Assembly: GCA_002432655.1 (NCBI GenBank)
Contig: DJFZ01000032.1
Location: forward strand, 1,775-65,774
Reading direction: 5' to 3'
Origin: Thiotrichaceae bacterium UBA5859
Lineage (GTDB): Bacteria > Pseudomonadota > Gammaproteobacteria > UBA5859
DNA length: 64,000 bases
Part shown: positions 29,336-51,936 of the stretch, piece after piece
Position numbering within the stretch: the first letter of the stretch is position 1
Layout: every line of letters begins with the position of its first letter
The notes under the pieces: generated by a model
Database searches by the model: none
What the model was told of the DNA's origin: nothing
What the model saw: only the letters and a program-made list of their open reading frames with translations
Program-made: the position numbers and the translations under genes

Positions 29336-30049
29336 TTGCCTGGTGCCGTGAGCGATACATTGATTCAATACGACTTCCGCCTTTCTGAGGAACTATTCGA
29401 ATATCAAGTAAGACTTGATCCAAACTCCCTTGCAATCACCGAAGAAAATGAAACTTATCCGGATTGGGTATTGCTACAGTTTCACCAATGTCCACACTGC
29501 CCACTCAAACCCGAAGAAACCCAATACTGTCCCTTGGCAAAGCATATCAGTCATGCAGTGGATTTTTTCGCGGAAATGCCCTCCTTTGAACAACTTCAGG
29601 TAGCCGTTTCCACCAAAGATCGAAAGTTCTTAATGCAAACAGATGCACAAGACGGTATGCGCTCCTTGTTAGGTCTAATTATGGCTACCGCGGGATGTCC
29701 ACACATGAACTGGTTTAAACCCATGGCTAGATTCCACCTCCCAAAAGCTAATTTGGCAGAAACAATTTATCGTGTGACCTCTATGTATCTTTTAGCACAA
29801 CATTTTGTTGCCAAAAATGGAGGCGAACCAGATTGGGAACTGCGAAAACTACCGGAACTCTACGGCAATGTGGATTTAGTCAATACCTATATCTTAAAGC
29901 GACTACGATCTTTTATTAGTAAAGATTGTTCCCTTAACGCATTGGTCATTCTCACGGTATTTTCAACACAATTGAACGAATCTGTTACAGAACCCCTAGC
30001 TGAGTTGGAATATCTATTTAGCGATTTCCTACCCTCTCCTCACACCTGA
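29336..30049 (+). CDS. Hypothetical Cys/His-rich protein; start codon uncertain (TTG in track)
   Basis: Open 237-codon frame; motifs CPHCPL, YCPL, AGCPHMNW could form a metal site; no family recognised. Confidence 0.35.
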   Translation: MPGAVSDTLIQYDFRLSEELFEYQVRLDPNSLAITEENETYPDWVLLQFHQCPHCPLKPEETQYCPLAKHISHAVDFFAEMPSFEQLQVAVSTKDRKFLMQTDAQDGMRSLLGLIMATAGCPHMNWFKPMARFHLPKANLAETIYRVTSMYLLAQHFVAKNGGEPDWELRKLPELYGNVDLVNTYILKRLRSFISKDCSLNALVILTVFSTQLNESVTEPLAELEYLFSDFLPSPHT

Positions 30050-30164: not shown

Positions 30165-30827
30165 ATGTCCTTAACCACCACCCCGATAAATGAAATACTA
30201 AATCAGTATATACAGGATATTGGTATCCGTGAGCCGGAAGTCCTCAAGGCGATTCGTACGGCCTCTAAGGATCACCCACTAGCAGCAATGCAAGTGGCCC
30301 CGGAGCAAGGGCAATTCCTAGCCATCATTCTCAAACTGATGAATGCTCGTCGAATATTAGAAATCGGTACATTCTTAGGATACAGCGCGACCGCCTTTGC
30401 GTTGGCTTTAGGAGAAGATGGTGAGGTAGTAACTTGCGATATACGTCAAGATTGGGGGGAACTAGCCAAAGCGAACTGGCAAAAAGCGGGCGTGGATGGG
30501 ATCATCTCTCAGAAGATTGGACCTGCTACGGAGACTCTAGTTGCATTACGTGGGACACTGGGGGATGGATATTTTGACTTTGCCTTTATCGATGCGAATA
30601 AACAAGATTATCTGACCTACTACGAACACTGTTTAAAGTTGGTTCGTAGAGGTGGATTAATTACCATCGACAATACGCTCTGGAATGGAGAAGTCGTTGA
30701 TTCAAATTCAACAGACAACAAGGTAGCTGCGATAAGGCAATTTAACGCTTTTGTCCACCAGGATCAGCGTGTTGATATCTGTCTCACACCCGTTGGTGAT
30801 GGCTGTACACTACTATATGTGAGATGA
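30165..30827 (+). CDS. Class I SAM-dependent O-methyltransferase (caffeoyl-CoA OMT family 3-like)
   Basis: LEIGTFLGYSATAFALAL glycine-rich SAM motif, EVVTCDI acidic loop, ~220 aa size typical of the family. Confidence 0.75.
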   Translation: MSLTTTPINEILNQYIQDIGIREPEVLKAIRTASKDHPLAAMQVAPEQGQFLAIILKLMNARRILEIGTFLGYSATAFALALGEDGEVVTCDIRQDWGELAKANWQKAGVDGIISQKIGPATETLVALRGTLGDGYFDFAFIDANKQDYLTYYEHCLKLVRRGGLITIDNTLWNGEVVDSNSTDNKVAAIRQFNAFVHQDQRVDICLTPVGDGCTLLYVR

Positions 30828-30873: not shown

Positions 30874-31962
30874 TTATGGGGTAGTGGTCGCAAGTTCTCC
30901 CGTAAGCTCACGAATTTGTTGCTGCCTTTCGGGGTCTTCTCTATGTAGCTCTAGGACAAACTGGAAAAATTCAGCGCTACTATCCACTGAACCCACAGCC
31001 ACCAAAGTCCGTCCGATTTCCATAAAGATTCGCTCATCCTCTTTGTCTATTTTTTGGACTTCTTTATAATATTTTTTTACTTCATCCAAATTACCACGAA
31101 TGGCTGCCACTTTGGCTAACCCACTCCAAGCGAACTTGTTATTAGTTTTTTGCAGAACCTGACGACAGGTATTTTCGGCATCTTCCAGCCTGCCCACATT
31201 TCTATAGGCATCTCCGAGCCGGGTTAACATCTCAATGGTGCCTTCATGCCTAGTTAAAATGCGCTCCCAATGACTGATTGCTTGTTCATACTGTTGTTGC
31301 CATCGCAAACAGTCACCCATTCCAAATAATGCATAGGCATTAAATGGCTCTTCGTCTAAAGCTATCGAGTAGTAACTCTTGGCTTGTTCAAATTCTTTTT
31401 TATAGCGATAAATATTACCCGCCATAGTCAGCACGTGTACCGACCGTGGATCCTGTTCCAATACCTTCAAATAATGAACCAAGGCCTGATCCGCACGTTC
31501 GGTTTTTTGATACAGATCTGCAATACCAATGAGTGCGTAACGATCTTTAGCATTTATCTCCAAGGCCTTATTGTAGAAACTTTCAGAGTCTAGATAGTTG
31601 CCAATTTTTTTATAGGCATCGGCCACGCGAGTAATCACGAAAATATCATTCGGGCGTTCTTCAAGATATTTTAGCCACACCTCAGCCGCGTCTATGTATC
31701 GATGTAATCCTCGATAGGCATCTCCCAGGCCTCTAAGCGAAAATACATTCTTTGGATCCACCTTGAGTACGGAAAGATAGCATTGAGTGGCTTCACTGAA
31801 TTCTTTACAGCGACGTAACACATCGCCCAGCCCCGTCAAGGCATATGCATTCTGAGACTCAATATGCAATGCCTTTTCAAAACTTGCGCGTGCGTCTTGG
31901 AGGTTATTTTGTTTGGAAAAGCGATTGCCTTGTTTACAAAGCTCAACGACCGTGGAATGCAT
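30874..31962 (-). CDS. Cytoplasmic TPR-repeat protein
   Basis: Repeated A..Y...G.....A...Y.KAL..P 34-residue units across 362 aa; no signal peptide. Confidence 0.65.
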   Translation of the reverse strand: MHSTVVELCKQGNRFSKQNNLQDARASFEKALHIESQNAYALTGLGDVLRRCKEFSEATQCYLSVLKVDPKNVFSLRGLGDAYRGLHRYIDAAEVWLKYLEERPNDIFVITRVADAYKKIGNYLDSESFYNKALEINAKDRYALIGIADLYQKTERADQALVHYLKVLEQDPRSVHVLTMAGNIYRYKKEFEQAKSYYSIALDEEPFNAYALFGMGDCLRWQQQYEQAISHWERILTRHEGTIEMLTRLGDAYRNVGRLEDAENTCRQVLQKTNNKFAWSGLAKVAAIRGNLDEVKKYYKEVQKIDKEDERIFMEIGRTLVAVGSVDSSAEFFQFVLELHREDPERQQQIRELTGELATTTP

Positions 31963-32293
31963 TTAGAAATCCTTTATACTCCATTTGTACTCATTTTAAG
32001 CAGTTCGATTGAAGCGTTAATCGGGGTTTTAACAATGTGTTAGTCATCAAAATATGGGTGACGAACAGCTATTTTCGGTATCGGCTCAGGGGCAGAAAAA
32101 GTAAGCCGAAAAGCACCCCCGACGGATCGCTATTGTGCCGCCTTGAGACAAACGAAAAATACTAGAGAAAAGCTAAAATTTATCTCTTAATCAATCTGTT
32201 ATATAAATGACAGGGCTATTAGAAAGGGGACTTATTTATCCGAATTAGGATAACAAGCAAAGAGTTAAAACGATAAACGGGTAAAATTATAGT

Positions 32294-32977
32294 CTACACG
32301 GCGGCCGGTAACAGAGCGTCTTCATTCTCCACGGCGCTTTTGTACTCCGCCTCTACACGGCTATGAAAATATCTTCTATTTTCCTTCAGAGCTTGGAGCA
32401 CTTGTTGAGGTCTTCCTACGTAGGGCACCCGCTTGCCCCGATGCCGGCACTCTTGTCCACACTGCTTTAACTCAATACCTAATGAGCGATAGACGCGCAA
32501 AAGTGTGAGAGGCACAATACCGACGATGCCCTCAACCTCTGCTTGATCTGAATGAGCCGAAGCGGCGCGCAACATACCCGCGATAATCGGCTTCTCCGGG
32601 CGAATGGTTTCCCTCTTTAAGCCTACTCCGATCAGCGTTTGAATAGCCAATTCTCTATCGATACACAGACGCGACAGCTCGACAATTTTTCCATGACGGC
32701 ATTTATTTAAGATGCCATCATCCAACTCAGTAATCAGTGCTGAGGGTATTTGCGGATTAGACGAAATCAAGCGAAATCCTGCCACAATCGCATGAGATGC
32801 TTTGGATTTAACAATAAAATGGCTAGAAGTTTGATCGAAGAAATCCCGCTCCATTCTATCTTTGCTGACCCGCTCAAACTGCTTTAATTCACAAAATATT
32901 CGATGTCTTAACCTAAAGTGAGCCAGTCTTGTTTCTTCATCATTTGCCAATATTACTTCAAAATGATCATCGAACAT
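32294..32977 (-). CDS. LuxI/FeeM-like GNAT-fold acyltransferase, paralog A (resembles PEP-CTERM/exosortase-associated acyltransferases)
   Basis: FRLRHRIFCEL...ELSRLCIDRE...HGKRVPYVG motifs are shared with the downstream paralog and with autoinducer-synthase/N-acyl amino acid synthase-like families. Confidence 0.55.
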   Translation of the reverse strand: MFDDHFEVILANDEETRLAHFRLRHRIFCELKQFERVSKDRMERDFFDQTSSHFIVKSKASHAIVAGFRLISSNPQIPSALITELDDGILNKCRHGKIVELSRLCIDRELAIQTLIGVGLKRETIRPEKPIIAGMLRAASAHSDQAEVEGIVGIVPLTLLRVYRSLGIELKQCGQECRHRGKRVPYVGRPQQVLQALKENRRYFHSRVEAEYKSAVENEDALLPAAV

Positions 32978-33305
32978 CTACATAAACCTTCCTTGAATAC
33001 TGCTTTCAATATCTCCGCTGGAGATTAACTTTTTACGTTTCTAGGCACTGCGCGGGGTTAAAACCCAGATTGACTCATCTTATAGCGACTGGATTGTGCT
33101 CAGATTGAAGACGGGATCACCTTCGGATTGGCTCACTTCCGCCCTCTATCTATCGATGAAAAAATGAATTTATCAATAAAAATAAGGTGTTGGGAGGTTA
33201 ATCTAGAGTATAAAAACAAAAGTCGAACCTTTTCAACAGATTTAATATATTTCAGCGTTTATTCAACATCGTTTTTATTAAATTTTTCTTAATAATGCAC
33301 AACTT

Positions 33306-34121
33306 TTAAACATGATTAACGCAAGAACGCGGTGGATGCCAATAACACTCTCCATTGGTAATAAAATGGTAAACTTCCGGGCGCAAATGTTGAATGCCCA
33401 ACAAAACCTCTTCCACGCTGTTAAAAACCGGAACCCTCTTGCCATGGTATTCCACGTCCGTTCCAATACGCATAAATTCGATACCAAATCTCTTTAAAAG
33501 CCGTAACAACATAGGTTCCATCACCGCAAACCAATTATCAATGCCTTGGTCCGCACTCATTTGCACAATCGAACGGAACAGCCCTAAGGTGATATAGGGT
33601 AGATAGCGACGCTCATTGCTCATCGGTCCCTCATCCAATTGTTGAACAGCTTTATTGGTTATACCATGATGTACGTTTTGCTCACCAATGCGTCGTCGAA
33701 ACTCGCGAGAAACAGCAAATCTAGAAATTTCTGCAGCCGTCTTTCTGGTTTGGGAAGATACGCGGTAGCCGTAGTTTGCCAAACTAGTTCCACAATGCTG
33801 TTCAATCGGAAGCAGACTAAATTCTGAGCCATCCATCGGCAGGACCAACCGTACAGTTGCGGCATCCCAACCTGTTCTTTTATGGCGGATCAGGCAGTGT
33901 ACTGATCGACTATCGTAAATATCCCGCTCTAATCCACGATAACATTGTTGAGGATTTTCAAACGGATGCTCCAAACAATACACTTGATAACGTAGCCGAA
34001 ATACTGCGTCAAGCATTTCATCAGTTTTCACAGGCAAGATTTCGAAATAGTCGAAAAAATGATCTAACTCACTTTGTGTGGCGCTCCTGCCTAGCTCCCT
34101 TGAAACTTGTTTACTCATCAT
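33306..34121 (-). CDS. LuxI/FeeM-like GNAT-fold acyltransferase, paralog B
   Basis: FRLRYQVYCLEH...EISRFAVSREFRRR...YHGKRVPVFN; clearly alignable with paralog A along its length, with an extra N-terminal ~20 aa and internal indels. Confidence 0.55.
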   Translation of the reverse strand: MMSKQVSRELGRSATQSELDHFFDYFEILPVKTDEMLDAVFRLRYQVYCLEHPFENPQQCYRGLERDIYDSRSVHCLIRHKRTGWDAATVRLVLPMDGSEFSLLPIEQHCGTSLANYGYRVSSQTRKTAAEISRFAVSREFRRRIGEQNVHHGITNKAVQQLDEGPMSNERRYLPYITLGLFRSIVQMSADQGIDNWFAVMEPMLLRLLKRFGIEFMRIGTDVEYHGKRVPVFNSVEEVLLGIQHLRPEVYHFITNGECYWHPPRSCVNHV

Positions 34122-34278
34122 GGCGACTGTGGCCTACTTTCCGAATAATTATATTTACTATAATAATAGTCGACCCGATATTGTCCCTATTGAGTGTCTA
34201 ATATTTAAACAGTTGTGAACCTGGTCGCAAAAATTAATATTTATTTATATGTAGAAAGAGGGCTTAACCTGGATACGG

Positions 34279-36540
34279 CTAGGAAACCGTGCTCGAACGG
34301 CGCAATCGCTCCACTATAACTACTAGAGCTGGCAACAATAACAGATCAAATGCTAACGCGGTCATCATGCCTATGGTGGTTAATAGACCAAAATATTCTA
34401 TGGGCTTGAAGCCGGAGACCACCAATAAACCAAATTGTAAACTTAAAATAATTGTGGTGACAGATAGGGCCGCCCCGACTTTCGTTAGGGCAATATGAAT
34501 CGACTGATGGACGTTTATTCCCGATTGACGGGATTGGCGATAAGCGTGAAAGAGGTGAATGGTATCATCTACGGCCACTCCCACGGCGACGCTAGCAATC
34601 ATTGCAGTGGCCATATCCAACCAAATACCACAGATCCCCATCACTGCAAAAATCAATATGATGGGAGAGATATTCGGTATCATACAAAGGATAGCGGCGG
34701 GTAAACTTCTGAATAAGATTAACAACGAAATAAAAATAAGCGACAAAGCGCCAAACAAGCTTCGAACTTGACCGCTAATGAGGAGCGATTCTTGATCCGC
34801 AAACAATCGGCCATCACCCGCTATTTGAACGGTTACTTGATCTAATGGCACCTCATTCAATCTGTCTTCGATTCGACTCATTAACCCCCGAATTTTTTGT
34901 GAGCCCTGCTCATGTACACTGATCAAAATCCGGGTTTGCGCGAAATCTCTATCCACAATGTCATATAGATCTTCGCCATCATATAACTTTAAGTATTGGG
35001 CAATTAAGCGATCGCGTTGTGGGACAACACGATAATCTTCCACGCCATCATGGAACGCCCAGTGCATCTCCTCTACATATTCCGCCATAGATAGGGTGCG
35101 ATCCACTTCTGGCTGCGCCTCTAACCAGATCTGCATCGCGCGTATCCAATTTTGACTATGTGCATTCAGCAAACCATCCCGCTGCGATGACGTGAGCAAT
35201 AGTTCCAATGAGGTGACACCACTTATTTGTTCTTGAAATTTTTCTGTGGCTTGGACTAATTCGGAGTCCGACTCAAAGTACTCCAGAAAGTTTGTTTCTG
35301 TATGGATAGCTGTGATCTTGGGAATACATGTAAACACTACAAATGCAAAACCCGCCACCACCAAGAAGGGATAGCGAGTAGCCAACAGGCTACAACTTTC
35401 TAACATTGGATCGAAGATACCCACACCAAAACGAGTTTTGGACCAACTTTTATTGTCCCACTTAGCAAACAGCGGTGGCACAATAAACATTACGATAAAA
35501 AACAAAATAAACACACCCAGGGCACTGATCAATCCGAATGTACGAATGGGTACTATCGGACTTAAACTAAGTGACGCCAAACCCGCTGCAGTGGTGATGG
35601 ATGTAAACAGTGCTGGCTTGTATATTTGTTTTAATGCTTGCGTAAACCTTCCATTCCCTTGATATCCCGATTGCTCCGCTAACAACACACTATTATAAAA
35701 ATGCACCAACAGCGCCACGGTAAGCGCGCCTAGTAAAGATGGCATCATAGTGGAAACCAGTGTATACGGTTGTCCGCTAATCACAAATAGCGCGAGGGTG
35801 GCAGTACTCACGGTATGCATCGCCACCAAGCCCACTACCACAGCCATGACACGTCGAAACATCCACCACAGTAATAACAATGCTATCCCTAACGTCAATG
35901 GGATCAGGCGCATATTTTCCTGCATCATTAAATTGAGCTGATATACATCCACTGCCACTTGACCGACGCTGCCTTGGTACCATGACATCAAATGATGTTG
36001 TTCCATTAAACCCAGTGTGGTCTGTACAAGAGAGTTTCTTTCTACACTGTTACCCATGTCGTTAGGTCGTATTACCATCGCTACAGCGGTTGCATCCTCA
36101 CTCACTAACCATCCAGGTGCGAACCTATCTTGAAGTACTGTTTGTCGAATGACATGGGGTTCGAGCTGTACAAAATTGGCCACATCGACTAATGGGACGA
36201 TTTCAAAACCGTCCTCTACTGGTTTAACAGATTCCACAGTCGTAAAAGTTAATACTTTCTCCACAAAATCTTGCCTGGAAAGATCTGTTGCCAAGTGATT
36301 TAGATTGATTAACACATTGTGCTGAAAAAGATCCTGTCCTTCAAAGAGTAAGATCAACACTTGGTCTTGAGGGAATTTCTCACGAATGAGTGCATCAATT
36401 TGCACAGCCGGTTCGGCATCGGACAAATACACGCCAGGTGCATTGTTGATTTCAAGTTGGCTTAATAGTCCAGCGGGTAAAACCAAAAATAAGATCAAGA
36501 TGATTACGGCTTGTTTGGCGCTAAAGTAGATCTTGTTCAA
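34279..36540 (-). CDS. MMPL/RND-superfamily exporter (two 6-TM bundles with sterol-sensing-like regions)
   Basis: 753 aa; periplasmic domain between TM1 and TM2, two hydrophobic bundles; TTG start overlapping the stop of the upstream gene. Confidence 0.75.
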   Translation of the reverse strand: MNKIYFSAKQAVIILILFLVLPAGLLSQLEINNAPGVYLSDAEPAVQIDALIREKFPQDQVLILLFEGQDLFQHNVLINLNHLATDLSRQDFVEKVLTFTTVESVKPVEDGFEIVPLVDVANFVQLEPHVIRQTVLQDRFAPGWLVSEDATAVAMVIRPNDMGNSVERNSLVQTTLGLMEQHHLMSWYQGSVGQVAVDVYQLNLMMQENMRLIPLTLGIALLLLWWMFRRVMAVVVGLVAMHTVSTATLALFVISGQPYTLVSTMMPSLLGALTVALLVHFYNSVLLAEQSGYQGNGRFTQALKQIYKPALFTSITTAAGLASLSLSPIVPIRTFGLISALGVFILFFIVMFIVPPLFAKWDNKSWSKTRFGVGIFDPMLESCSLLATRYPFLVVAGFAFVVFTCIPKITAIHTETNFLEYFESDSELVQATEKFQEQISGVTSLELLLTSSQRDGLLNAHSQNWIRAMQIWLEAQPEVDRTLSMAEYVEEMHWAFHDGVEDYRVVPQRDRLIAQYLKLYDGEDLYDIVDRDFAQTRILISVHEQGSQKIRGLMSRIEDRLNEVPLDQVTVQIAGDGRLFADQESLLISGQVRSLFGALSLIFISLLILFRSLPAAILCMIPNISPIILIFAVMGICGIWLDMATAMIASVAVGVAVDDTIHLFHAYRQSRQSGINVHQSIHIALTKVGAALSVTTIILSLQFGLLVVSGFKPIEYFGLLTTIGMMTALAFDLLLLPALVVIVERLRRSSTVS

Positions 36541-38366
36541 AATGCCACGCTCCAGCCAAGCGCAAGATAGTCTCTGGAGTCAAAAAATCCGCCTATTGTT
36601 TGTTCATCTCCATCAAATGTATGGTAGGCAACAATCAGCTCGTGGGGTTCGAAGTTGCGAAACACAAGCTTCGGAGAGAGATAATAGTCCTCTTCACTGA
36701 GACCGATGCGACTACGCAGTTGAAAGCGGACACGATCATTCGCGAAAGCGTACTCAAGCTGACCATTGAGTGCATAAGTTTCGTCATCATCGAGAAATGG
36801 CTCATCCGCAGTTTTGCGATTGCCCGTCAACTGTATATTGATTCGAGTATCTTTATCGCCCGGATAAAACTCCATATCCAAAATCCAATGTAGTTGTTCA
36901 CTCTCGAGTAGTGCAAGATCCACGCCCGTCACCGGCATATCCTGCAAATTTGCCACTTCAAAGCGTAGTAATGACAAACCAAGATCCCAGGCGAACTCTA
37001 ACCCTGTGGCGACGATTTTTGGATGAACTTCAAAAAAGGTAGGCCCGCTGGTGGCTGCCAGCGCAGTGTCCACATCATTGTTGGATAAAACGAGATTCTG
37101 CACCATTTCTGGTGAGACGATAAAATAAGGCTGAGGGTTTTGTGTTTCCAAATAGCTCATTCCCCAATCCATCGAATTTAACGATTGCGTAAACCTAATC
37201 CCTCCAGACTCCTGCTCTTCTTCACGTATGCTAAGGGAGCCTTGTGTCACTAGACGAGCGATCAGCGGTGTCTCACTAAAGCCTAATAGCTGCCCACTCT
37301 GAGGGGACATCAGAGTCCAGAATTGGTCTCGATCAGCGGTCAATGGAGATAAGCTATTTGGTATATATAGAACATCCAGCTTGGCAGAGCCCAGAAACCA
37401 CTCGAGACGAAGCGCCGGAGTAGCCAATCGCCGTTCAGGTAACTCATCTATAAACCCGCGTCTAATATCCTGTCGACTGAGTAAATCTAATGGGCTGAAT
37501 TCGTCTGCTTGCCCCCAAATCACCGTTTGTGCACCCAAAGTCAAACGTGCAGACTCGCCACGGTAGCGCAAATAGGCTTGATCTAGTAAAAGCTTATAAT
37601 CTCTAACTTCATTAACCGCACTAAGCACGTAAGCATCTGCTCGTGCACCGATCCTAATTTTCCAGCCTGGAGACAACGCCCAATTTAATTCAGATCCAAT
37701 ACGCAAATAATTTGGATAGGTTTCATGTTCTGCAGTTGAACGCCCAAGTTCAGAATAAAGCTCATTTTTCAGTTCAATGGACGCAAATAATGCGCTTGTT
37801 ACCTCAGTTGTTTTCTCCGGAACTGAGTCTAGTACCTCTTGTCGCTGCTCAGTGCCGTCTTCTGCTAAGTACCCTCGCACTATATATCGGAGTTGTTGCT
37901 GTTCGAAAGGATGGGAATCAACTTTGTATCCTAGCGATTCGACTCTATTTTTGGTTCTTTGCAGATAATCCCGACTTTTAAAAATGCCTACTGATATCCA
38001 TAACTGCTGAATATGTTGATTACCAAAGATCTGTGTTTCAACTCCATGCTGCGCAAGCCTTCGCTGCACCCTCTGCGCCTCATCCATTTGAGAGATCGGA
38101 CCGATGCGCAGTTGGGTGAACAACACCAGTGTCTGTTTCTTCTCAATAGAAATATTGGTTGCGCCCTGGGCTACAAGAACGTCTACCCGCTCTTGCGCGG
38201 CCGATTGTGTCTCATACATCTGCTCAAACCAATTAGAGTGTTCCTGAGCTACGAGTGTGGACAGTAAGGTGTTAATCACAAAGAGGGTGACCAGGAAAAT
38301 GAGGGTTCGGAAATGGCTGACAGCGATGAGCATACAAACAAAGTTCCGCAGGCGTAGATTTGCCAT
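36537..38366 (-). CDS. Putative outer-membrane beta-barrel protein with N-terminal signal/anchor and SPOR-like module
   Basis: 609 aa; long hydrophobic N-terminus; alternating amphipathic beta-strand-like pattern; C-terminal ...LGWSVAF ending in Phe, typical of OMP barrels; translationally coupled to the MMPL gene. Confidence 0.45.
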   Translation of the reverse strand: MANLRLRNFVCMLIAVSHFRTLIFLVTLFVINTLLSTLVAQEHSNWFEQMYETQSAAQERVDVLVAQGATNISIEKKQTLVLFTQLRIGPISQMDEAQRVQRRLAQHGVETQIFGNQHIQQLWISVGIFKSRDYLQRTKNRVESLGYKVDSHPFEQQQLRYIVRGYLAEDGTEQRQEVLDSVPEKTTEVTSALFASIELKNELYSELGRSTAEHETYPNYLRIGSELNWALSPGWKIRIGARADAYVLSAVNEVRDYKLLLDQAYLRYRGESARLTLGAQTVIWGQADEFSPLDLLSRQDIRRGFIDELPERRLATPALRLEWFLGSAKLDVLYIPNSLSPLTADRDQFWTLMSPQSGQLLGFSETPLIARLVTQGSLSIREEEQESGGIRFTQSLNSMDWGMSYLETQNPQPYFIVSPEMVQNLVLSNNDVDTALAATSGPTFFEVHPKIVATGLEFAWDLGLSLLRFEVANLQDMPVTGVDLALLESEQLHWILDMEFYPGDKDTRINIQLTGNRKTADEPFLDDDETYALNGQLEYAFANDRVRFQLRSRIGLSEEDYYLSPKLVFRNFEPHELIVAYHTFDGDEQTIGGFFDSRDYLALGWSVAF

Positions 38367-38374
38367 GACGATGA

Positions 38375-39154
38375 TTAAAGTTCTTCTAAGGAGCGTCGTG
38401 AGAATCTATCCCTTGACAAGCCCATGTCATAGTCTATGGACTCCAAGCGAATTTCGGTGCTATGTTGAGAGATCAAATCGGTCATGACCGAATGCGTCAC
38501 AGTCCAATATCCCTCGATTTTCTTTTTCGAAAGAACTTTAAAACTCTTTATAGGGTCCTCATCACCCGACCGATAAAACTCGATTTTCATCGCTAATAGG
38601 GTGTCGGGATCAATCCAGCTGAGACGCTTGCTATAAACAGTAGACTGCGCTCTGAGCGGAATACTCTCTAAAACTATACAGTCGCAGCTGCCAATGGGCA
38701 TCGCTTTCACAATCGCATGTTTATCAAGATTAGGCGGCCTATCTCTAAGATCTTCAAAGAAGATATCAGAGCCAACAAATCGTCCTCCCTTTCTGGAAGA
38801 AGCAATACGACGTGCTCGATCAAGATCAGGTAAAAAAACCAATTGCTCTTTGTTTACCCCACTCACATCATGGGTCAACAAACCCACCCCCTTCATATCT
38901 GCTGGCGAGCTAAAACGTATCAGCGAGCGAATGCCTCCAGCTCCTTCATCTAGGCGATAGGTAGTCATGCGGCGAATACGAGGCTTGGTACCAGGTGAAA
39001 TTAAATGCATTTCGCCTACAGAAACGAAATCAATACCGTCAGGTCGTTCATACACCCGCTGGGCAAGAAGATCACCATCTTCCGTTGCCCATGAGGGTTG
39101 AACAAACAGCGTCAGTATAGGCGCAATAACAGCTAAAAGTATAGAAAACCGCAC
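38375..39154 (-). CDS. LolA-like outer-membrane lipoprotein-sorting family periplasmic protein
   Basis: Signal peptide; IRFSSPADMKGVGLLTH...QLVFLPDLDRARRIASSRKGGRFVGSDIFFEDL matches the conserved core of the LolA_like family often paired with MMPL transporters. Confidence 0.65.
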   Translation of the reverse strand: MRFSILLAVIAPILTLFVQPSWATEDGDLLAQRVYERPDGIDFVSVGEMHLISPGTKPRIRRMTTYRLDEGAGGIRSLIRFSSPADMKGVGLLTHDVSGVNKEQLVFLPDLDRARRIASSRKGGRFVGSDIFFEDLRDRPPNLDKHAIVKAMPIGSCDCIVLESIPLRAQSTVYSKRLSWIDPDTLLAMKIEFYRSGDEDPIKSFKVLSKKKIEGYWTVTHSVMTDLISQHSTEIRLESIDYDMGLSRDRFSRRSLEEL

Positions 39155-39240
39155 TTCATCCCTGTGTGCTGAATAGATGATTCCCTGAGAGTTTAATCGG
39201 CGAAGAGTACCAGAGCCACAAGGTGGAAACTATATCTGGC

Positions 39241-39280
39241 AAAAAAAAAGCCTCGCAAGGCGAGGCTTTTTTGTTTTTTT
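39241..39280 (-). terminator. Rho-independent terminator downstream of the PEP-CTERM gene, likely bidirectional
   Basis: A9-gcctcgc-aag-gcgaggc-T6gT7: a GC-rich 7-bp stem, 3-nt loop, flanked by an A-run and a T-run. Confidence 0.8.
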
Positions 39281-39287
39281 ATCGGAT

Positions 39288-40181
39288 TTACCGAACTCTT
39301 CGTCGAGCCAGACCACCCATCCCTAATAATCCTAACCCCATCAAAGCGAGCGTTCCAGGTTCAGGTACAGCAACTGTGAAGTCGATACTACCATTATGGT
39401 CAGAAAGCACAGTAAACAGTTCAGAATTTAAAGGATCTCCAGGACCTACTACTACATTATCTGTGTTTTGGTCTAAATTCCAGGAAAGCGCAATGATGCC
39501 ACCATCTAATAAATCGTTGGCATCGGAATCTGCGCTTGTATCTGCAATACCATCACCATTGCTATCAAAGAAGAAGAAATCTTCCAGAGCAAAAGTGATT
39601 TCACCAAAAATAATGGAAGAACCTGATACAAAAGCACCACCCGCGAAAAGATTCGAGCCTGTACCACCGAGAATAGTCAACTCAAGAACCTTGGTTCCAT
39701 CACCGTAGCCAGTGTCATCACCCAGACCTAAACTACCATTGTCATTGCGATTTAATGCGGTATCTAGATAAAACGAGATGACGGTACCAGAATCGTAGGT
39801 AGTGGTTTGATTTACGCCGTCAAAAGCAGTTACGGTTCCGCTTAGTCCAGTCCAGGTTGCGGTTAACTCATACCCGCCTAGAGAATCCAAACCTTCATCA
39901 TCAATTATCGCTGAAGCTATCAATCCATTAATGTAGGCATTACCAGAATCAACAAAGGAGTCCCCTACGGTTAGACCTGGATTACCATCATCATCAAATT
40001 GAACAGACTCTGTGTTCGCAGAAAAAGCGAACTGCTGTGCCACACCAGTCAGAGTGTTGGCATCAAAGCCTGTTCCAGCAGAACCTGCCACACCAACATC
40101 ATAAAAAAAGCCAGTAGCAAAAGCACTAGAACTTGCCGCTAATATTGAAGCCCCTAAAGTCGCCTTACTTAAAGTTTTCAT
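39288..40181 (-). CDS. PEP-CTERM sorting-domain exoprotein
   Basis: Signal peptide MKTLSKATLGASILAASSSAFA; Gly/Asp/Thr/Ser-rich body with Asp-rich D-x-N-x-D-G-like loops (FDSNGDGIADTSAD); C-terminal VPEPGTLALMGLGLLGMGGLARRRVR, i.e. PEP motif, TM helix and Arg cluster. Confidence 0.9.
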   Translation of the reverse strand: MKTLSKATLGASILAASSSAFATGFFYDVGVAGSAGTGFDANTLTGVAQQFAFSANTESVQFDDDGNPGLTVGDSFVDSGNAYINGLIASAIIDDEGLDSLGGYELTATWTGLSGTVTAFDGVNQTTTYDSGTVISFYLDTALNRNDNGSLGLGDDTGYGDGTKVLELTILGGTGSNLFAGGAFVSGSSIIFGEITFALEDFFFFDSNGDGIADTSADSDANDLLDGGIIALSWNLDQNTDNVVVGPGDPLNSELFTVLSDHNGSIDFTVAVPEPGTLALMGLGLLGMGGLARRRVR

Positions 40182-40230
40182 TTTATCACCCTTACATCAC
40201 TAGGATTTATCTCTATCTGCTTAAGCTATC

Positions 40231-40246
40231 AGCAAGTGCTGTGCCA
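40231..40246 (-). promoter_or_regulatory. Sigma-54 (RpoN) -24/-12 promoter for the PEP-CTERM gene
   Basis: Minus strand reads TGGCAC-AGCAC-TTGCT, a perfect TGGCAC-N5-TTGCW match. The -12 element lies ~50 nt upstream of the ATG, with an AAGGGTGA Shine-Dalgarno between; the sigma-54 activator PrsR is encoded just upstream. Confidence 0.65.
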
Positions 40247-40479
40247 AACCGTCTTAACCAGAATATCTTATTGTTTTATAAAGCATTTTTTATTTATGCA
40301 TCACGACTAGAATCCACCTTAAAAGTCAGTTAGCAGGATCCGCTGATAAAACGTAAAAATAGCTGACAGATTTTATCCATGATCCTGAAACCATCTAGGC
40401 AGCCATATTGACAAATGGTCTTTTATTGTTATTTTTCAATAGCTTATATTTTAGTCGGCAGTGTAAAAAAATTTAACGG

Positions 40480-41394
40480 CTAAGGTTGAGAGCGCGCGAG
40501 TCTGCTACCGAATTGCCTTTTAGCATGTGAAATGAGCAATCTTTGCATGGGGTTCCTCCATCCAAAGGGTCTCCAAGTTTTACGTAATCGTTGTTTGTAG
40601 GCATCGAAGTGTAAGCCCCATGGTGCCGTTGTCACCTTTCCCCTAGCAAGCAAGATTTTTAAGGCTTGAGTGGCGGCTAGTCCCGCACATAACTCACAGG
40701 CCATTGGCGTAGACGGCCCTTGTCTGCGGTTAAAATCCACACGACTAGGCTCGATCAGATAACCCATCTGCAACATGGCCGGTGAAAGGCCGACCAGAAA
40801 TCGTATATATTGTTCCACTTCATCACGTCCTTGTAGGCCAAAATATGCCTCGAAAGACATGCCGCTGGGTAAAAATGCTAAGAACGCACAACCCATGCCC
40901 AAGGGAGCTGCAGTAATCGCCGGAATACCGCGCTCACCACAGGCGGTAAACAAAGCAGAACGTATTGGTAGCTGAAAAAAATCCAGGCTATCGACATAAA
41001 TATCAACGTCTTGGAGAAAATCATCCAGATTTTCCTCAGACACCCCTTGTTCAAAACCGGTTAAGTGCAACTCGGGATTAATATCGAGCGCCATCTGTGT
41101 CATGGTCTCTAATTTCGAACAACCCATGGAGCGAAGGCTGGCACCCGCTTGTCGATTAAAATTCGCAAGCTCAAAGCGATCAAATTCAGCCAGACTAAAA
41201 CCACCAACACCTAATCGGGTTAGAGTCAGCAAATGACTTCCCCCCACCCCGCCTAAACCGGCGATGGCAATTTTTTTTGCGCGTAAAATTTGCTGCTCAG
41301 ATTCGGTCACCCAACCCAGATTGCGTGAAAAAGCTTGTTCGTACTGAAACTGATTATCATCCATGATTCGTATATCGCGTGATGTCACCCTCAT
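40480..41394 (-). CDS. ThiF/MoeB/HesA-family E1-like adenylyltransferase
   Basis: IAIAGLGGVGGSHLLTLTRLGVGGFSLAEFDRFELANFNRQ is a Rossmann nucleotide-binding and E1 signature; 304 aa; a single C-x-x-C (CELC) near the C-terminus. Confidence 0.75.
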   Translation of the reverse strand: MRVTSRDIRIMDDNQFQYEQAFSRNLGWVTESEQQILRAKKIAIAGLGGVGGSHLLTLTRLGVGGFSLAEFDRFELANFNRQAGASLRSMGCSKLETMTQMALDINPELHLTGFEQGVSEENLDDFLQDVDIYVDSLDFFQLPIRSALFTACGERGIPAITAAPLGMGCAFLAFLPSGMSFEAYFGLQGRDEVEQYIRFLVGLSPAMLQMGYLIEPSRVDFNRRQGPSTPMACELCAGLAATQALKILLARGKVTTAPWGLHFDAYKQRLRKTWRPFGWRNPMQRLLISHAKRQFGSRLARSQP

Positions 41395-41405
41395 TCATGA
41401 GTCGA

Positions 41406-44183
41406 CTATTGTTTAAGTTCCTGCCAGAGGGCTTCTGCTTCAGCTCTTGAATTGAATTCCCTTTGGCTATAAATAAAGGGCTCGAGGATCTCTCGCGCCC
41501 TTTCTTTGGCATTCAGGTGACTATTTACGAGCGCTAGGTGATAAGCGATGTCGGCGTTATTTCGCTGCTTTTGATATGCTCTACTCAATAACTCCTGCGC
41601 CTTAGTCCATTTATTTTCTTCCACCAGCAGCATAGCATAAGTATCCATGACTGCCGGCACCTCTGGTGCTAACTGATAGGCTTTTTCAGCGTGAGATAAG
41701 GCTTGTTGATACTCTTTGTCCCTTAAGTGCCAGGCTAGATTATTTAATGCCACTAGATTATTAGGTTTAACAGCTATTACTTTCTGCCAATAGGTAATCG
41801 CCAACTCTATTTGAGCCAGAGCTAAATATTCGTTTGCCATCCAAATCATTAAGCCCGTATCCTGGGGTCTATCTGCTATCCAGGCGTCGACAAATCTTTC
41901 CACCTGTTGCCAACCGCGACCAAGCTTTATCACCTGAGCAAGTGCGATAGCATTGCGCTCAGAGGCTTCAATCTCGATAGCTTGCCGCAGCGCGCGCTCT
42001 GCTCTTGAAAAATCTTGTACACCGTGGGCCAAGTCCGCCTCTAGCTCAAGTCCCATCACGGCCTCAGGCCACAACTGACGATATCGGTTAACTAAGGGCT
42101 CCGCTCGGCTAAATTGCTTTTCTTGCAGTAACAGTAAGGCAAGAATTCCTGTGGCAGACTGATTTTGTTCCTGCTCTTGTAACACCTGACGCAGATGGAA
42201 CTTAGCCTCTTCTGGATAACCGGCCGCCATATACGCCTGCGAAATGAGCAAGTTCGCATCAATATGGTTAGGATATGCATTCAATACGCGACGACAAGAC
42301 TGCACGGCTTGTTCCGGTTTGCCACGGCGAATCAATAGTTCACAATGAAACAGGGTGAGATCAGGTTGATCGGGTTCAACCTCCAACCCTTCATTAATTT
42401 GCGCCAGGACTTCGTTTAGCCTCTCTTCACTGAACAAATACTTAATTAAGGCAATTCGATTTTTAATCGAGTTTGCATCACTTCGCAATGCCAGCCGCAA
42501 CCAGCGCTCATAAGCATCAAAATCTTTTCGGGCACGGGCTAACTTGGCCATTTTCTCAATAGCCACTACATTGTTTTCATCTTGCTTCCAAACATCTAAA
42601 AACCACTTCTCAGCAAGCTCGTAGTCACCCCGACCCATAGCTATCTCGCCAATGTTAAATGCCGGCGAAGGATTTTTTCCATCAAGCTGATGTGCGCGTT
42701 CGAAACTAGCCATTGCTTCGTCCTCTTGTTTCAAGGACAAATGTGCGATACCCATCAAATTGTACGCAACAGGCTCCTTAGGGTAAGCAGCCACCCACTG
42801 GTTCGCAGCCTTAATAGCCGCATCAAATCGTTGCGCATCCAACAAGGCGAGGGTTTTAGTGAGATGAATTTGTGGGCCTGCTTGCGGTCGACCGAGTAAC
42901 GTATCAAGTTCTGTTAAGCCTCTATCAACCTGATCTGCGTCCACCAATGCTCCTGCCAGCTTAAACCTCAAAATATCTTCGTTTGGATTCTTGTCTACTA
43001 TCTCCTCCATCAGTTGCAAACCACGTTCTGTTTCGCCTTCACGCAGATATAGTTGTGCAGACAATAGCGTCAAACCGAGATGATCCACCGACAAAAGTAA
43101 ACCCTCTTCCACCACTTTTCTCGCCCGCTCTAGTTGCCCACTCTGAATTAAGATTTCCCCCAATAGTCGATAGGCGCCCACATTTTTGGGATGATCAAAA
43201 AGATATCGGGATACCAAACGCTCTGCCTGTGAATAATTTTTATCCTGCAAAAAAATAGTTGCCAACAGCAAAGGCACGTCCCTAAAGGAACGATACCTGG
43301 ACTCAATTTCCAGAAGAATCGCTCGTGCCTCATCTACCTGTCTATTTTGTAAAAGGATACGAGCCTTAGCGTATCGAGTTTCCAAATTACCATATATTTT
43401 ATCTGCTAATTCCACGTCTTTTAGGGCGGCTGCCGGTTGATTGCTATCGCTAAAATAATAGGCCCGTTGCAGCACTGCTAACCAATGATCCCGACTTCCA
43501 GGTACCGCCGATTTGATTGCTTGCGCGAACACGGCTTCCACCTCTGCACCTGATTCACCTTGAGTGGCCAACAGTAGCGCATAGATTCGGTATGCTTCCG
43601 ATACTGCACTATCCATCTGAATGGCCCTACTCAATGTGAGTGTCGCTTCTTCGAGATCGCCTTGGTTCTTTAAAATCAATCCGTATAAAGCAAGTGCTTC
43701 GCTATCGCTTGATAAATTTTCTAGACTGGTCAATAAATCTATCGCTTCTGGATAGCGGCCAAGAGCGAGCAGCACCCTCGCCTCTAACTTTATCAATGCA
43801 GATGTCGGCACCGCATTTTCAGGAACTTGTGCCAAACGAGATAATGCCAGTTCATTCTCATGCCTAAAGTGCGCAGCCTCGGCAAACGCCAGAATAAAAT
43901 CAAGGTCGGTTGCCCCCAATGCCTCTGCTTTTTCTAATTCCTTTTCCGCCGTGGGACCATCGCCAAGCAGCAAATAGTTTTCACCCAATAGGCGACGAGC
44001 TTCCACATGGTCTGGGCTGCGTTGCAATATGGTTTTCAGATCCAAAACACTTGCCTGGATCTCTCCTTGAGACTGCGCTACTTTCGCCCGCTCAAACAGC
44101 TCCTCATCGGAGGGTGTCCTGCTACAAGCGACTAACAGAAGTACCGGAACTAAAAAACCAAAAACCATCCTAATAAAACCCAT
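41406..44183 (-). CDS. prsT: PEP-CTERM system TPR-repeat lipoprotein, PrsT-like
   Basis: 925 aa; lipobox LLLVAC-S after the signal peptide; TPR repeats throughout; size and context match PrsT. Confidence 0.7.
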   Translation of the reverse strand: MGFIRMVFGFLVPVLLLVACSRTPSDEELFERAKVAQSQGEIQASVLDLKTILQRSPDHVEARRLLGENYLLLGDGPTAEKELEKAEALGATDLDFILAFAEAAHFRHENELALSRLAQVPENAVPTSALIKLEARVLLALGRYPEAIDLLTSLENLSSDSEALALYGLILKNQGDLEEATLTLSRAIQMDSAVSEAYRIYALLLATQGESGAEVEAVFAQAIKSAVPGSRDHWLAVLQRAYYFSDSNQPAAALKDVELADKIYGNLETRYAKARILLQNRQVDEARAILLEIESRYRSFRDVPLLLATIFLQDKNYSQAERLVSRYLFDHPKNVGAYRLLGEILIQSGQLERARKVVEEGLLLSVDHLGLTLLSAQLYLREGETERGLQLMEEIVDKNPNEDILRFKLAGALVDADQVDRGLTELDTLLGRPQAGPQIHLTKTLALLDAQRFDAAIKAANQWVAAYPKEPVAYNLMGIAHLSLKQEDEAMASFERAHQLDGKNPSPAFNIGEIAMGRGDYELAEKWFLDVWKQDENNVVAIEKMAKLARARKDFDAYERWLRLALRSDANSIKNRIALIKYLFSEERLNEVLAQINEGLEVEPDQPDLTLFHCELLIRRGKPEQAVQSCRRVLNAYPNHIDANLLISQAYMAAGYPEEAKFHLRQVLQEQEQNQSATGILALLLLQEKQFSRAEPLVNRYRQLWPEAVMGLELEADLAHGVQDFSRAERALRQAIEIEASERNAIALAQVIKLGRGWQQVERFVDAWIADRPQDTGLMIWMANEYLALAQIELAITYWQKVIAVKPNNLVALNNLAWHLRDKEYQQALSHAEKAYQLAPEVPAVMDTYAMLLVEENKWTKAQELLSRAYQKQRNNADIAYHLALVNSHLNAKERAREILEPFIYSQREFNSRAEAEALWQELKQ

Positions 44184-44210
44184 GTGCTTCCCTTTATTAT
44201 ATTTTCATTT

Positions 44211-46982: not shown

Positions 46983-47021
46983 GTTAAAGATTCTTAGTTT
47001 GGGATTGCATCCATATTAGGA

Positions 47022-48383
47022 TCAAACTTTCAAATTATATTTACTCATTAAAGAGTAAAGTGTCGGCCGAGTGATACCTAGTAGTTCAGCAGCACGGGAC
47101 ATATTCCCTCCGGCATGACCTACTGCCTGAATGATGGCGTTCGTCTCTGCGCGTTCACGTACGGTGCGTAAGTTAAGAGGCAAAGACTGGTCTTTTTCTG
47201 CCGGAGTAATTTCTAGCTCGTCTGCTGAGATTTCATTGCCCTCAGCCATAATGACCGCTCTCTTGACGCGATTTTCTAATTCACGCACATTGCCAGGCCA
47301 TGCATAGTCCACAATTGCTTGACTGGCTTGAGAGGAAAACCCCTTAATTTCGATGCGATTCATTTCCCTTTTGAACCTATCTAAAAATGCCTTTGCCAAT
47401 AGCAGCACATCGCCTTCACGGGCTTTCAGCGGAGGAATATTAACCGTTACTTCACTAATTCGATAATACAAATCTTCTCTAAAATCACCTTGTTCTATTT
47501 TTTCTAATAGATCTTGATGAGTCGCTGAAATGATCCTCACGTCTACAGCTATTTGCCGTCGCCCCCCTACTCTCTCGATCACGCGCTCCTGGAGAAAACG
47601 TAAAAGTTTCGCTTGTAGTGGCAGGGGTAAGTCACCTATCTCATCCAGAAACAAAGTACCGCCGTTGGCCTGCTCAATCTTACCAATGGTTTGCTTAATG
47701 GCCCCGGTAAAGGCACCTTTTTCATGACCAAAGAGTTCCGATTCCAGCAAGTTGTCGGGGATAGCCGCACAATTGATAGCAATAAATGGCTCCTGCTCTC
47801 GACGACTTAGTTCATGTAATGCACGGGCAATGACTTCCTTCCCGGTACCACTTTGGCCAAGTAATAACACGGTTGCGTCGGTAGGGGCCAATTTTTCCAC
47901 CGTTCGACAAACTTTTAACATTTGAGGACTGGCCGCAATAATCCCCTTCAAGGGCGACGTCAGTTGAGTACTATGCTGCTGTCTCGACTCCTCTTCCAAC
48001 TGCCATACATGAAACGCTCGATCAACTATTAATTTAAGCACATCCGCATCAATAGGTTTTTGATAAAAATCATAAGCACCTTTTTCAACCGCCTGAATCG
48101 CTACTTTGCGATCCTCGTTTCCGGTCACCACAATGATTTTAGTGGCAGGTTGCAACTCTAATATTTCGGCGAGCGCCTTGAGCCCCTCACTTGCATTCGC
48201 CGGATCGGGTGGTAAGCCTAGATCACAAATCACCACTTGAGGCTCGTGACGTCGCAAGGCTTTAATTCCCGTCGCTCGGTCCGAACTAATCTCAACTAAA
48301 TAATCCTCGAAACACCATTTCAGCTGTTTTTGTAATCCTGCATCATCTTCAATTATCAAAATTGTTGGTTTTTCTTCCGACAC
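47022..48383 (-). CDS. prsR: Sigma-54-dependent response regulator of the PEP-CTERM system (NtrC family)
   Basis: Receiver domain (ILIIEDD...CDLGLP), AAA+ sigma-54 interaction domain with Walker A GQSGTGKE and GAFTGA motif (EKGAFTGA), C-terminal Fis-type HTH. Confidence 0.85.
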   Translation of the reverse strand: MSEEKPTILIIEDDAGLQKQLKWCFEDYLVEISSDRATGIKALRRHEPQVVICDLGLPPDPANASEGLKALAEILELQPATKIIVVTGNEDRKVAIQAVEKGAYDFYQKPIDADVLKLIVDRAFHVWQLEEESRQQHSTQLTSPLKGIIAASPQMLKVCRTVEKLAPTDATVLLLGQSGTGKEVIARALHELSRREQEPFIAINCAAIPDNLLESELFGHEKGAFTGAIKQTIGKIEQANGGTLFLDEIGDLPLPLQAKLLRFLQERVIERVGGRRQIAVDVRIISATHQDLLEKIEQGDFREDLYYRISEVTVNIPPLKAREGDVLLLAKAFLDRFKREMNRIEIKGFSSQASQAIVDYAWPGNVRELENRVKRAVIMAEGNEISADELEITPAEKDQSLPLNLRTVRERAETNAIIQAVGHAGGNMSRAAELLGITRPTLYSLMSKYNLKV

Positions 48384-48401
48384 TCTAGAATCCTGCCCTG
48401 G

Positions 48402-50492: not shown

Positions 50493-50507
50493 TCCTTTAA
50501 GACGCCT

Positions 50508-51905: not shown

Positions 51906-51936
51906 ATATCTTACATCGGCCGAGTAGTTCTTCTAT

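Follow-up and report, generated by a model that had tools for sequence, protein, structure and literature searches.

In a 64,000-nucleotide stretch of DNA from Thiotrichaceae bacterium UBA5859 (contig DJFZ01000032.1; the whole stretch is hereafter called the window), we analyzed a three-gene unit on the minus strand that encodes a LolA-like periplasmic carrier, an outer-membrane barrel protein and an inner-membrane pump of the MMPL/HAE3 type in the RND superfamily. We consider, with moderate confidence, that the unit probably exports a hydrophobic or amphiphilic molecule across the whole envelope and is a part of the XrtA/PEP-CTERM biofilm-matrix system. The most informative clue to the function of the unit is its PEP-CTERM/exosortase context, which was absent from the initial annotation of this DNA. 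The carrier gene (38375-39154) encodes 259 amino acids (aa) from a GTG start at 39154, the barrel gene (36537-38366) encodes 609 aa from ATG 38366 or 598 aa from the conserved ATG 38333, and the pump gene (34279-36540) encodes 753 aa from a TTG start. The coordinates of these three open reading frames (ORFs), all on the minus strand, agree with those first annotated.

To describe the conservation of the gene order we used 73 non-redundant loci, namely one genome match (a Thiotrichaceae metagenome-assembled genome (MAG), here L001), contigs found by exact look-up and 69 metagenome loci, the latter gathered with an alignment of 11 closer sequences; related contigs were covered to ±8-10 kb around the unit. 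Of the 52 loci with enough flank, 51 have a LolA-like gene directly upstream of the barrel gene and on the same strand, and in 49 of 53 loci an MMPL gene lies directly downstream of the barrel gene. The exceptions are L033, where the pump is upstream, L041, which has an inserted gene, L059, and L005, which carries a distant paralogue of the barrel. The three genes, which the initial annotation had presented as one compact exporter, are co-conserved and form one conserved unit, relatives of which occur in Thiotrichaceae-like and other Proteobacteria.

The unit starts straight after a gene for a flocculation-associated PEP-CTERM protein of the PepA family (39288-40181, minus strand; 101 bits to NF033554 against a cut-off of 80, with a PEP-CTERM tail). 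Downstream of the unit and on the same strand lies a gene for a protein resembling N-acyl amino acid synthases, a FeeM-like acyltransferase of the PEP-CTERM/exosortase-associated family (33306-34121; 250 bits to TIGR03694, cut-off 112), which also matches Acetyltransf_5 and Autoind_synth in Pfam, while its FeeM match is under the cut-off of that model. It is followed by a second, more divergent acyltransferase gene (32294-32977, minus strand; 105 bits to TIGR03694, just under the cut-off). Beyond pepA, also on the minus strand, are a gene for a ThiF-like adenylyltransferase of the PRK08223 family (40480-41394) and the core of an XrtA/PEP-CTERM locus with two PrsT, PrsR, PrsK, a TIGR03013 priming glycosyltransferase and GalE (41406-52920). 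PrsK, PrsR, both PrsT, TIGR03013, PepA and TIGR03694 lie within 15 kb and each exceed the curated cut-off; XrtA itself was not identified among the scanned ORFs of the window. The two full-length PrsT (TIGR02917) paralogues stand in tandem (41406-44183 and 44211-46982, minus strand), each above the curated cut-off, and the duplication is also found in L001 and in L006, a locus whose barrel protein is 67% identical to that of the window.

An unbiased clustering of the neighbouring ORFs placed PrsT-like TPR proteins (22 of 66 loci) and ThiF-like proteins (16 loci) at the top after the genes of the unit, followed by N-acyl amino acid synthases (24 genes in 14 loci) and PrsR-like regulators (10 loci); families resembling exopolysaccharide-export and chain-length proteins, assigned by inspection only, and PEP-CTERM proteins ranked lower. 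As the commonest of these families, the PrsT-like one, reaches only 22 loci, no conserved fourth partner was found. A regular-expression scan of the 38 loci of at least 9 kb found a PEP-CTERM tail within 8 kb in 14. In two further genomes that were checked (one with a match to a Chromatium okenii protein, the other from Candidatus Methylobacter favarea), ThiF-like genes adjoin PEP-CTERM genes in the absence of the three-gene unit (L081 and L082, described below). The ThiF-like family is very conserved, with 61-68% identity and more than 100 clusters (Chromatium, Thioalkalivibrio, Methylobacter, Competibacteraceae), and its members are sometimes fused to, or then followed by, a nitroreductase-like domain. 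A fusion of synthase and ThiF-like protein was considered as a link to the cargo and was rejected, the top 120 ThiF-like homologues being stand-alone or nitroreductase-fused and never fused to an acyltransferase.

The junctions within the unit were compared with those of its relatives. A stop/start overlap of 4 nucleotides (nt) between the barrel and pump genes had been described and is real: TTGA occupies 36540-36537, the barrel gene ending in …GCA TTT TGA and the TTG beginning one base earlier than the stop. The claim that the pump starts at this TTG is likewise borne out. The first in-frame ATG of the pump ORF is codon 155; an in-frame TGA lies 14 codons 5' of TTG 36540 with no ATG, GTG or TTG between; and the TTG codons 15 and 19, which would be the next possible starts, both fall inside the predicted first transmembrane segment (TM1, aa 11-29), so that TTG 36540 is the only start that preserves TM1. 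Both the TTGA overlap and the TTG start recur in L006, and its first pump codons differ from those of the window mostly by synonymous changes, a stretch that is therefore under coding constraint. We accept TTG 36540 as the start because later starts lose TM1, none lies 5' of it and L006 conserves it. A Shine-Dalgarno-like GGAG (36549-36552, minus strand) is found 8 nt 5' of the TTG, within the end of the barrel gene.

The 8-nt gap that had been given between the carrier and barrel genes stands only if the barrel starts at ATG 38366; the conserved start, ATG 38333 (Met12), gives 41 nt. The extra ATG adds 11 residues and is ATC in L006, the barrels of L006 and L001 start at the codon corresponding to Met12, and a deposited protein that is 100% identical to that of the window (P0001) is likewise called from Met12. 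In the public MAG record of the P0001 cluster, the barrel gene is split into two fragments named 'hypothetical protein' (HBC58094.1, 181 aa, and HBC58095.1, 389 aa), and its neighbours bear the names 'outer membrane lipoprotein-sorting protein' and 'RND transporter'. In every relative checked, on eight gene-called contigs, the barrel and pump genes meet tightly (-19 to +18 nt), while the carrier-to-barrel gap ranged from 10 to 280 nt. The tight coupling of the genes does imply coordinated expression, as initially proposed, but does not show stoichiometry; only the barrel-pump junction is consistently tight. The GTG start of the carrier is shared with L006 and L001, and AGGGA is present just 5' of it in the window and in L006. 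Between pepA and the carrier gene lies a palindromic, G+C-rich hairpin with runs of A and T at its flanks (39244-39272), kept in L006 and L001; this hairpin is the pepA terminator and sets the 5' limit of the three-gene unit.

The middle protein (36537-38366) had been put forward as a candidate beta-barrel, and structure prediction agrees. AlphaFold2, supplied with an alignment of 121 relatives, gave a model with a predicted local distance difference test score (pLDDT) of 91.1 and a predicted template modelling score (pTM) of 0.72; an earlier run on five sequences had been uninformative (pLDDT 47). The model contains a signal helix (aa 3-39), an N-terminal module (aa 46-167), a low-confidence or disordered linker (aa 168-196) and about 18 long antiparallel strands (aa 197-609, 36540-37778, minus strand; pLDDT mostly >90). 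The best Foldseek matches of this model in the PDB were the porins OmpF, OmpC and OccK (E ~1e-11, target-normalised template modelling score ~0.5), and no close solved relative was found there. The C-terminal residue is Phe, as in most of the relatives shown, which fits an outer-membrane barrel. The protein is thus predicted to be an outer-membrane beta-barrel, and the even number of strands in the model would place its N-terminal module in the periplasm.

In Pfam, the barrel protein matched DUF1302 (PF06980) with 31 bits against a cut-off of 23.2, over aa 263-482 and profile positions 148-371 of 541; only 16 of its 80 close relatives matched this family, and judging from these matches the protein is best placed in a sister group distant from DUF1302. 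It was at first taken for an orphan, as a word-indexed search gave five clusters, whether the query was the single sequence or a five-sequence profile; this was overturned by an exhaustive profile search, which returned 1672 representatives at E ≤ 1e-3, 422 at E ≤ 1e-10 and 156 at E ≤ 1e-30. NCBIfam held no model for the barrel protein or for the carrier.

The N-terminal module (37866-38231, minus strand; pLDDT >90) is of the SPOR type and would bind peptidoglycan. The SPOR-like segment that had been suspected here is real, as indicated by profile scores, the predicted fold and matches to solved structures. The full barrel protein scored 25.8 bits to Pfam SPOR (PF05036), above the cut-off, over aa 52-109, the isolated N-terminus (aa 44-170) scored 32.3 bits (E 1.2e-7), and the N-termini of 18 of 20 relatives matched as well. 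The N-terminal domain as a single sequence had no matches in the PDB; with a family profile, the SPOR structures of CwlC (1x60, E 1.2e-9), FtsN (1uta, 3.4e-4) and DedD (6ztg, 4e-3) were retrieved. The predicted strands (46-51, 69-91, 112-116, 121-129 and 150-167) and helices (54-66, 94-106 and 132-144), all with pLDDT >90, make up three beta-alpha-beta, or half-SPOR, units and a hairpin in the AlphaFold2 model, that is, about 1.5 SPOR domains. Pfam aligned units 1-2, whereas the initial annotation and the CwlC alignment picked units 2-3; the boundaries differ because the module has three half-SPOR units.

The fusion of SPOR and barrel had been thought unusual for an outer-membrane protein. It is no peculiarity of this locus and is instead typical of the barrel family: SPOR is present in 37 of the 80 closest full-length representatives and AMIN, which also targets peptidoglycan, in 4, and others have an acidic, low-complexity N-terminus. 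Our literature search found no paper describing a SPOR/AMIN-barrel architecture. In two loci with acidic N-terminus barrels (L002 1991-4984 and L011 176-5697), an AAA_16-type ATPase and two or three genes lacking annotation (245, 416-489 and 648 aa) stand ahead of the unit, and the 648-aa gene overlaps the start of the LolA-like gene. The distant paralogue in L005 (P0005, 8001-9707, 24% identity) has both a SPOR module and a barrel and is flanked by unannotated genes of 390 and 618 aa.

The pump matched PF03176 (MMPL) with 90.8 bits in two stretches (cut-off 20.5), and its best RND subfamily in NCBIfam was HAE3 (TIGR00921, 132.9 bits), to which the second half alone aligns well. A hydropathy scan put TM1 at aa 11-29 and TM7 at 392-410, with clusters of segments at 210-354 and 586-743, approximating 12 predicted transmembrane segments with two periplasmic loops, one after TM1 and one after TM7. 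As read from the sequence, the TM10 region (aa ~640-660) holds an acidic motif, VDDTIH, while the TM4 equivalent, LLVHFY (aa ~255-285), lacks an acidic residue, and the putative proton relay looks asymmetric. By sequence, the closest solved pumps are HpnN (6wu0, 5khn), MmpL4 and MmpL5. The pumps of most relatives are about 880 aa long, their N-terminus being extended by about 130 aa that are absent from the 753-aa pump of the window (L002 7316-9964, L011 8456-11119), and in L008 (7015-10347) the pump has 1110 aa and is fused to an FGE-sulfatase domain.

The carrier matched the Pfam family PF17131 (LolA_like, TP_0789-like) with 163 bits against a cut-off of 30, over profile positions 4-183 of 184, and has a signal peptide (aa 1-23, …SWA/TEDG) without a lipobox cysteine. 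Its solved relatives are 9tp6, 4z48 and 3bk5 (E 5e-26 to 1e-20). No match to PF03548 or another canonical LolA family was found in Pfam or NCBIfam at E ≤ 0.01, and the score to DUF1329 (PF07044, the type of AmeB discussed below) was 21.3 bits, under the cut-off of 23.1.

When these components are considered together, the proton-driven MMPL/HAE3 RND pump would take the cargo out of the inner membrane and hand it to the LolA-like carrier, which is soluble and periplasmic. The carrier would then bring it to the DUF1302-like barrel of about 18 strands, for insertion into the outer membrane or release at the surface, and the periplasmic SPOR module would tether this outer-membrane end to peptidoglycan. 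The direction of transport, the hand-over among the three proteins, the binding to peptidoglycan and the identity of the cargo are what we infer, the route itself by analogy with characterised relatives. The best candidates for the cargo are the N-acyl amino acid lipids, which we favour because synthases like the adjacent ones make them in related systems; this suggestion is tentative and carries roughly half the confidence that we place in the export route. Such synthases produce long-chain N-acyl amino acids, their link to exosortase is published, and their physiological role is 'still not clear' (PMC4897644).

Several points weigh against the proposed route and should be considered. The pump falls below the curated NCBIfam HAE3 cut-off (351.9 bits), the DUF1302 match of the barrel is weak and partial, and contacts among carrier, pump and barrel are assumed. 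The paralogue P0005 has no LolA-like or MMPL neighbour despite its SPOR module and barrel. The link to the N-acyl amino acid synthases is one of neighbourhood only and is seen in 10 of the 38 long loci, and the synthase gene, given its own conserved upstream block (described below), may be transcribed separately from the unit. Finally, in L081 (with ThiF-like, synthase and PEP-CTERM genes) and L082 (with ThiF-like and PEP-CTERM genes), the three-gene unit is not found within 10 kb. Such PEP-CTERM loci lack the unit, which is therefore tied to the whole locus and not to the synthase in particular; the unit is accessory to XrtA/PEP-CTERM loci, neither core nor universal.

Could the unit instead deliver the products of the exosortase, so that an XrtA-cleaved PEP-CTERM protein, or its lipid or glycan acceptor, passes from pump to carrier to barrel and on to the surface, as a Lol-like pathway serving PEP-CTERM proteins? 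We know of no RND/MMPL pump that extracts proteins, and a barrel of porin size would be an unlikely protein conduit. The PF17131 carrier is not a canonical LolA and has no PF03548 match, and XrtA-type loci without the unit exist, as L081 and L082 illustrate. We consider this delivery unlikely, even though the unit starts straight after pepA, has PEP-CTERM genes nearby in the 14 long loci given above and counts PrsT, PrsR and ThiF-like genes among its top neighbours. It would also supply a step that has been missing, as published work calls the way in which mature PEP-CTERM proteins exit the cell unknown (PMC7726332, PMC1569441) and the pathway of sorted products past the outer membrane is 'yet unknown' (PMC7726332). 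A bolder version would unite the two kinds of cargo: the N-acyl amino acid, possibly activated by the ThiF-like protein, would be XrtA's lipid acceptor for PEP-CTERM proteins or for the matrix polymer, and the unit, as the exosortase system's missing arm for outer-membrane delivery, would then move the lipid or lipid-linked product to the surface. We regard this version as improbable; if true, it would amount to a Lol-like pathway that is powered by the proton-motive force instead of ATP.

Our literature search found no paper tying PEP-CTERM to MMPL or LolA-like genes; outside that search stands the work of Craig, Cherry and Brady, who reportedly linked N-acyl amino acid synthases to exosortase in 2011. 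No mention of MMPL or LolA-like genes was found in Haft et al. 2006 (PMC1569441).

As a design, the export route that we propose has close counterparts. The idea of a Lol/Lpt-like conduit with a different class of pump stands in so far as the pump belongs to RND and not to ABC; the design itself is already described, in AmeABCD, in the cofitness of Pseudomonas genes and in the aryl polyene system. AmeABCD of Castellaniella defragrans consists of a DUF1302 barrel, a DUF1329 protein of the LolA superfamily, a Ycf48-like protein and a HAE3 pump, and is read as an envelope route for apolar compounds, deletion of the cassette lowering monoterpene tolerance (PMC6394551). In Pseudomonas, DUF1302, DUF1329, BNR and RND genes show cofitness (bioRxiv 10.1101/2020.07.04.188060). 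The unit of the window shares with this group the HAE3-type RND pump, the LolA-superfamily protein and the DUF1302-type barrel. It differs in having three components and not four, with no Ycf48/BNR-like gene adjoining; in its carrier, which is PF17131 and has 259 aa, whereas AmeB is DUF1329 and has about 450 aa; in its barrel, which is a weak match to DUF1302 and has a SPOR module at the N-terminus (in relatives, AMIN or an acidic region); and in its location within exosortase loci, while AmeABCD lies in catabolic islands.

These likenesses and differences bear on whether the unit serves general efflux and tolerance of hydrophobic xenobiotics or solvents in the manner of AmeABCD, its exosortase location being incidental. 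The three superfamilies are those of AmeA, AmeB and AmeD, and the tolerance phenotype is the precedent for such a role (PMC6394551). The neighbours of the unit are, however, consistently matrix and PEP-CTERM genes and not catabolic or stress genes, the fourth Ame component is absent beside it, the carrier is not DUF1329, and a putative peptidoglycan-binding module is not described for AmeA. We consider xenobiotic efflux to be a quite unlikely role.

RND pumps work outward, and there are no catabolic genes nearby, both of which argue against the import of hydrophobic nutrients across the outer membrane, a role that we hold to be very unlikely indeed. The suggestion follows from the Tween and fatty-ester phenotypes of Pseudomonas, P. 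putida DUF1302/DUF1329 mutants being defective on fatty esters (bioRxiv 10.1101/2020.07.04.188060).

HpnN, the HAE3 pump for hopanoids, is the closest solved pump to that of the window by sequence and moves lipid from the inner toward the outer membrane. Reportedly it needs no partners encoded alongside it for the periplasm or outer membrane (PMC6394551), whereas the pump of the window has such partners and scores far under the HpnN cut-offs. The likeness raises a further option, in which the unit supports envelope remodelling during matrix production by bulk upkeep of outer-membrane lipid, phospholipid or other, by analogy with HpnN and hopanoids. The solved pumps closest to that of the window, HpnN and the MmpL exporters of lipids and siderophores, speak for it, as does the proposal that the Pseudomonas DUF1302/DUF1329/BNR/RND genes export a cell-wall component (bioRxiv 10.1101/2020.07.04.188060). 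A housekeeping task of this kind is nonetheless poorly matched by a unit that is patchy and accessory (422 representatives at E ≤ 1e-10) and missing from some related loci (L081, L082), and we think such upkeep improbable.

The aryl polyene/xanthomonadin system comprises the RND pump ApeM, the LolA-like ApeL and the LolB-like ApeN, with a proposed placement of lipid in the outer membrane (bioRxiv 10.1101/2020.12.19.423268). It resembles the unit in that an RND pump and a LolA-like gene adjoin genes for the biosynthesis of a specialised lipid. It is described with a LolB-like protein (DUF3261) and has no large beta-barrel, SPOR module or exosortase link, all three of which the unit has. With Lol and Lpt the unit shares the logic of extraction from the inner membrane, hydrophobic transfer in the periplasm and an outer-membrane acceptor; those systems rely on ABC transporters and ATP, and the unit, with its RND pump, is not a member of either. 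Indeed, no canonical LolA, LolB, LptA or LptD family match was found in the unit with Pfam and NCBIfam. A periplasmic peptidoglycan-binding module on an outer-membrane component is also seen in the OmpA-like C-terminal domains and in the AMIN domain of PilQ; the module considered here differs in being SPOR, N-terminal and attached to a porin-like barrel. SPOR is best known from the inner-membrane division proteins FtsN, DamX and DedD and from the lipoprotein RlpA. Measured against these systems, the unit is a putative HAE3/LolA-like/DUF1302-type export cassette specialised for the PEP-CTERM/exosortase setting, with a SPOR-anchored barrel, and is ordinary as a transporter architecture.

Some features around the unit complete the description of the locus. 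About 50 nt upstream of pepA lies a perfect sigma-54 promoter consensus, TGGCACAGCACTTGCT (40231-40246, minus strand), the only zero-mismatch sigma-54 match in the 64-kb window; its position fits control by PrsR, a sigma-54 activator encoded at 47022-48383. No sigma-54 promoter was found directly 5' of the LolA-like gene. The first acyltransferase gene has directly 5' of it a block of some 100 nt (34122-34230, minus strand) that is about 90% identical in L006 (14110-14216), while no such conservation between the window and L006 is seen just past the pump stop codon. Within the block are a promoter-like site (34187-34160) and an inverted repeat that is imperfect (GCGACC…GGTCGA). Having no Rfam match and folding no better than its shuffled versions (z = -0.92), the block is probably a promoter/operator. 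Rfam gave only sub-threshold, terminator-like matches over 31900-40600. The locus is flanked by genes for a DUF6901 protein (29336-30049) and an O-methyltransferase-like protein (30165-30827), both on the plus strand and at the same position in L006.

PEP-CTERM/exosortase systems are widespread in floc- and biofilm-forming environmental bacteria, and the unit described here is a testable candidate for how such a system delivers hydrophobic material to the cell surface. It offers a concrete and genetically testable candidate both for the passage of the outer membrane and for the tie between the N-acyl amino acid synthases and the exosortase. The analysis moreover defines a sizeable and barely annotated family of outer-membrane barrels, with 156 representative clusters at E ≤ 1e-30.

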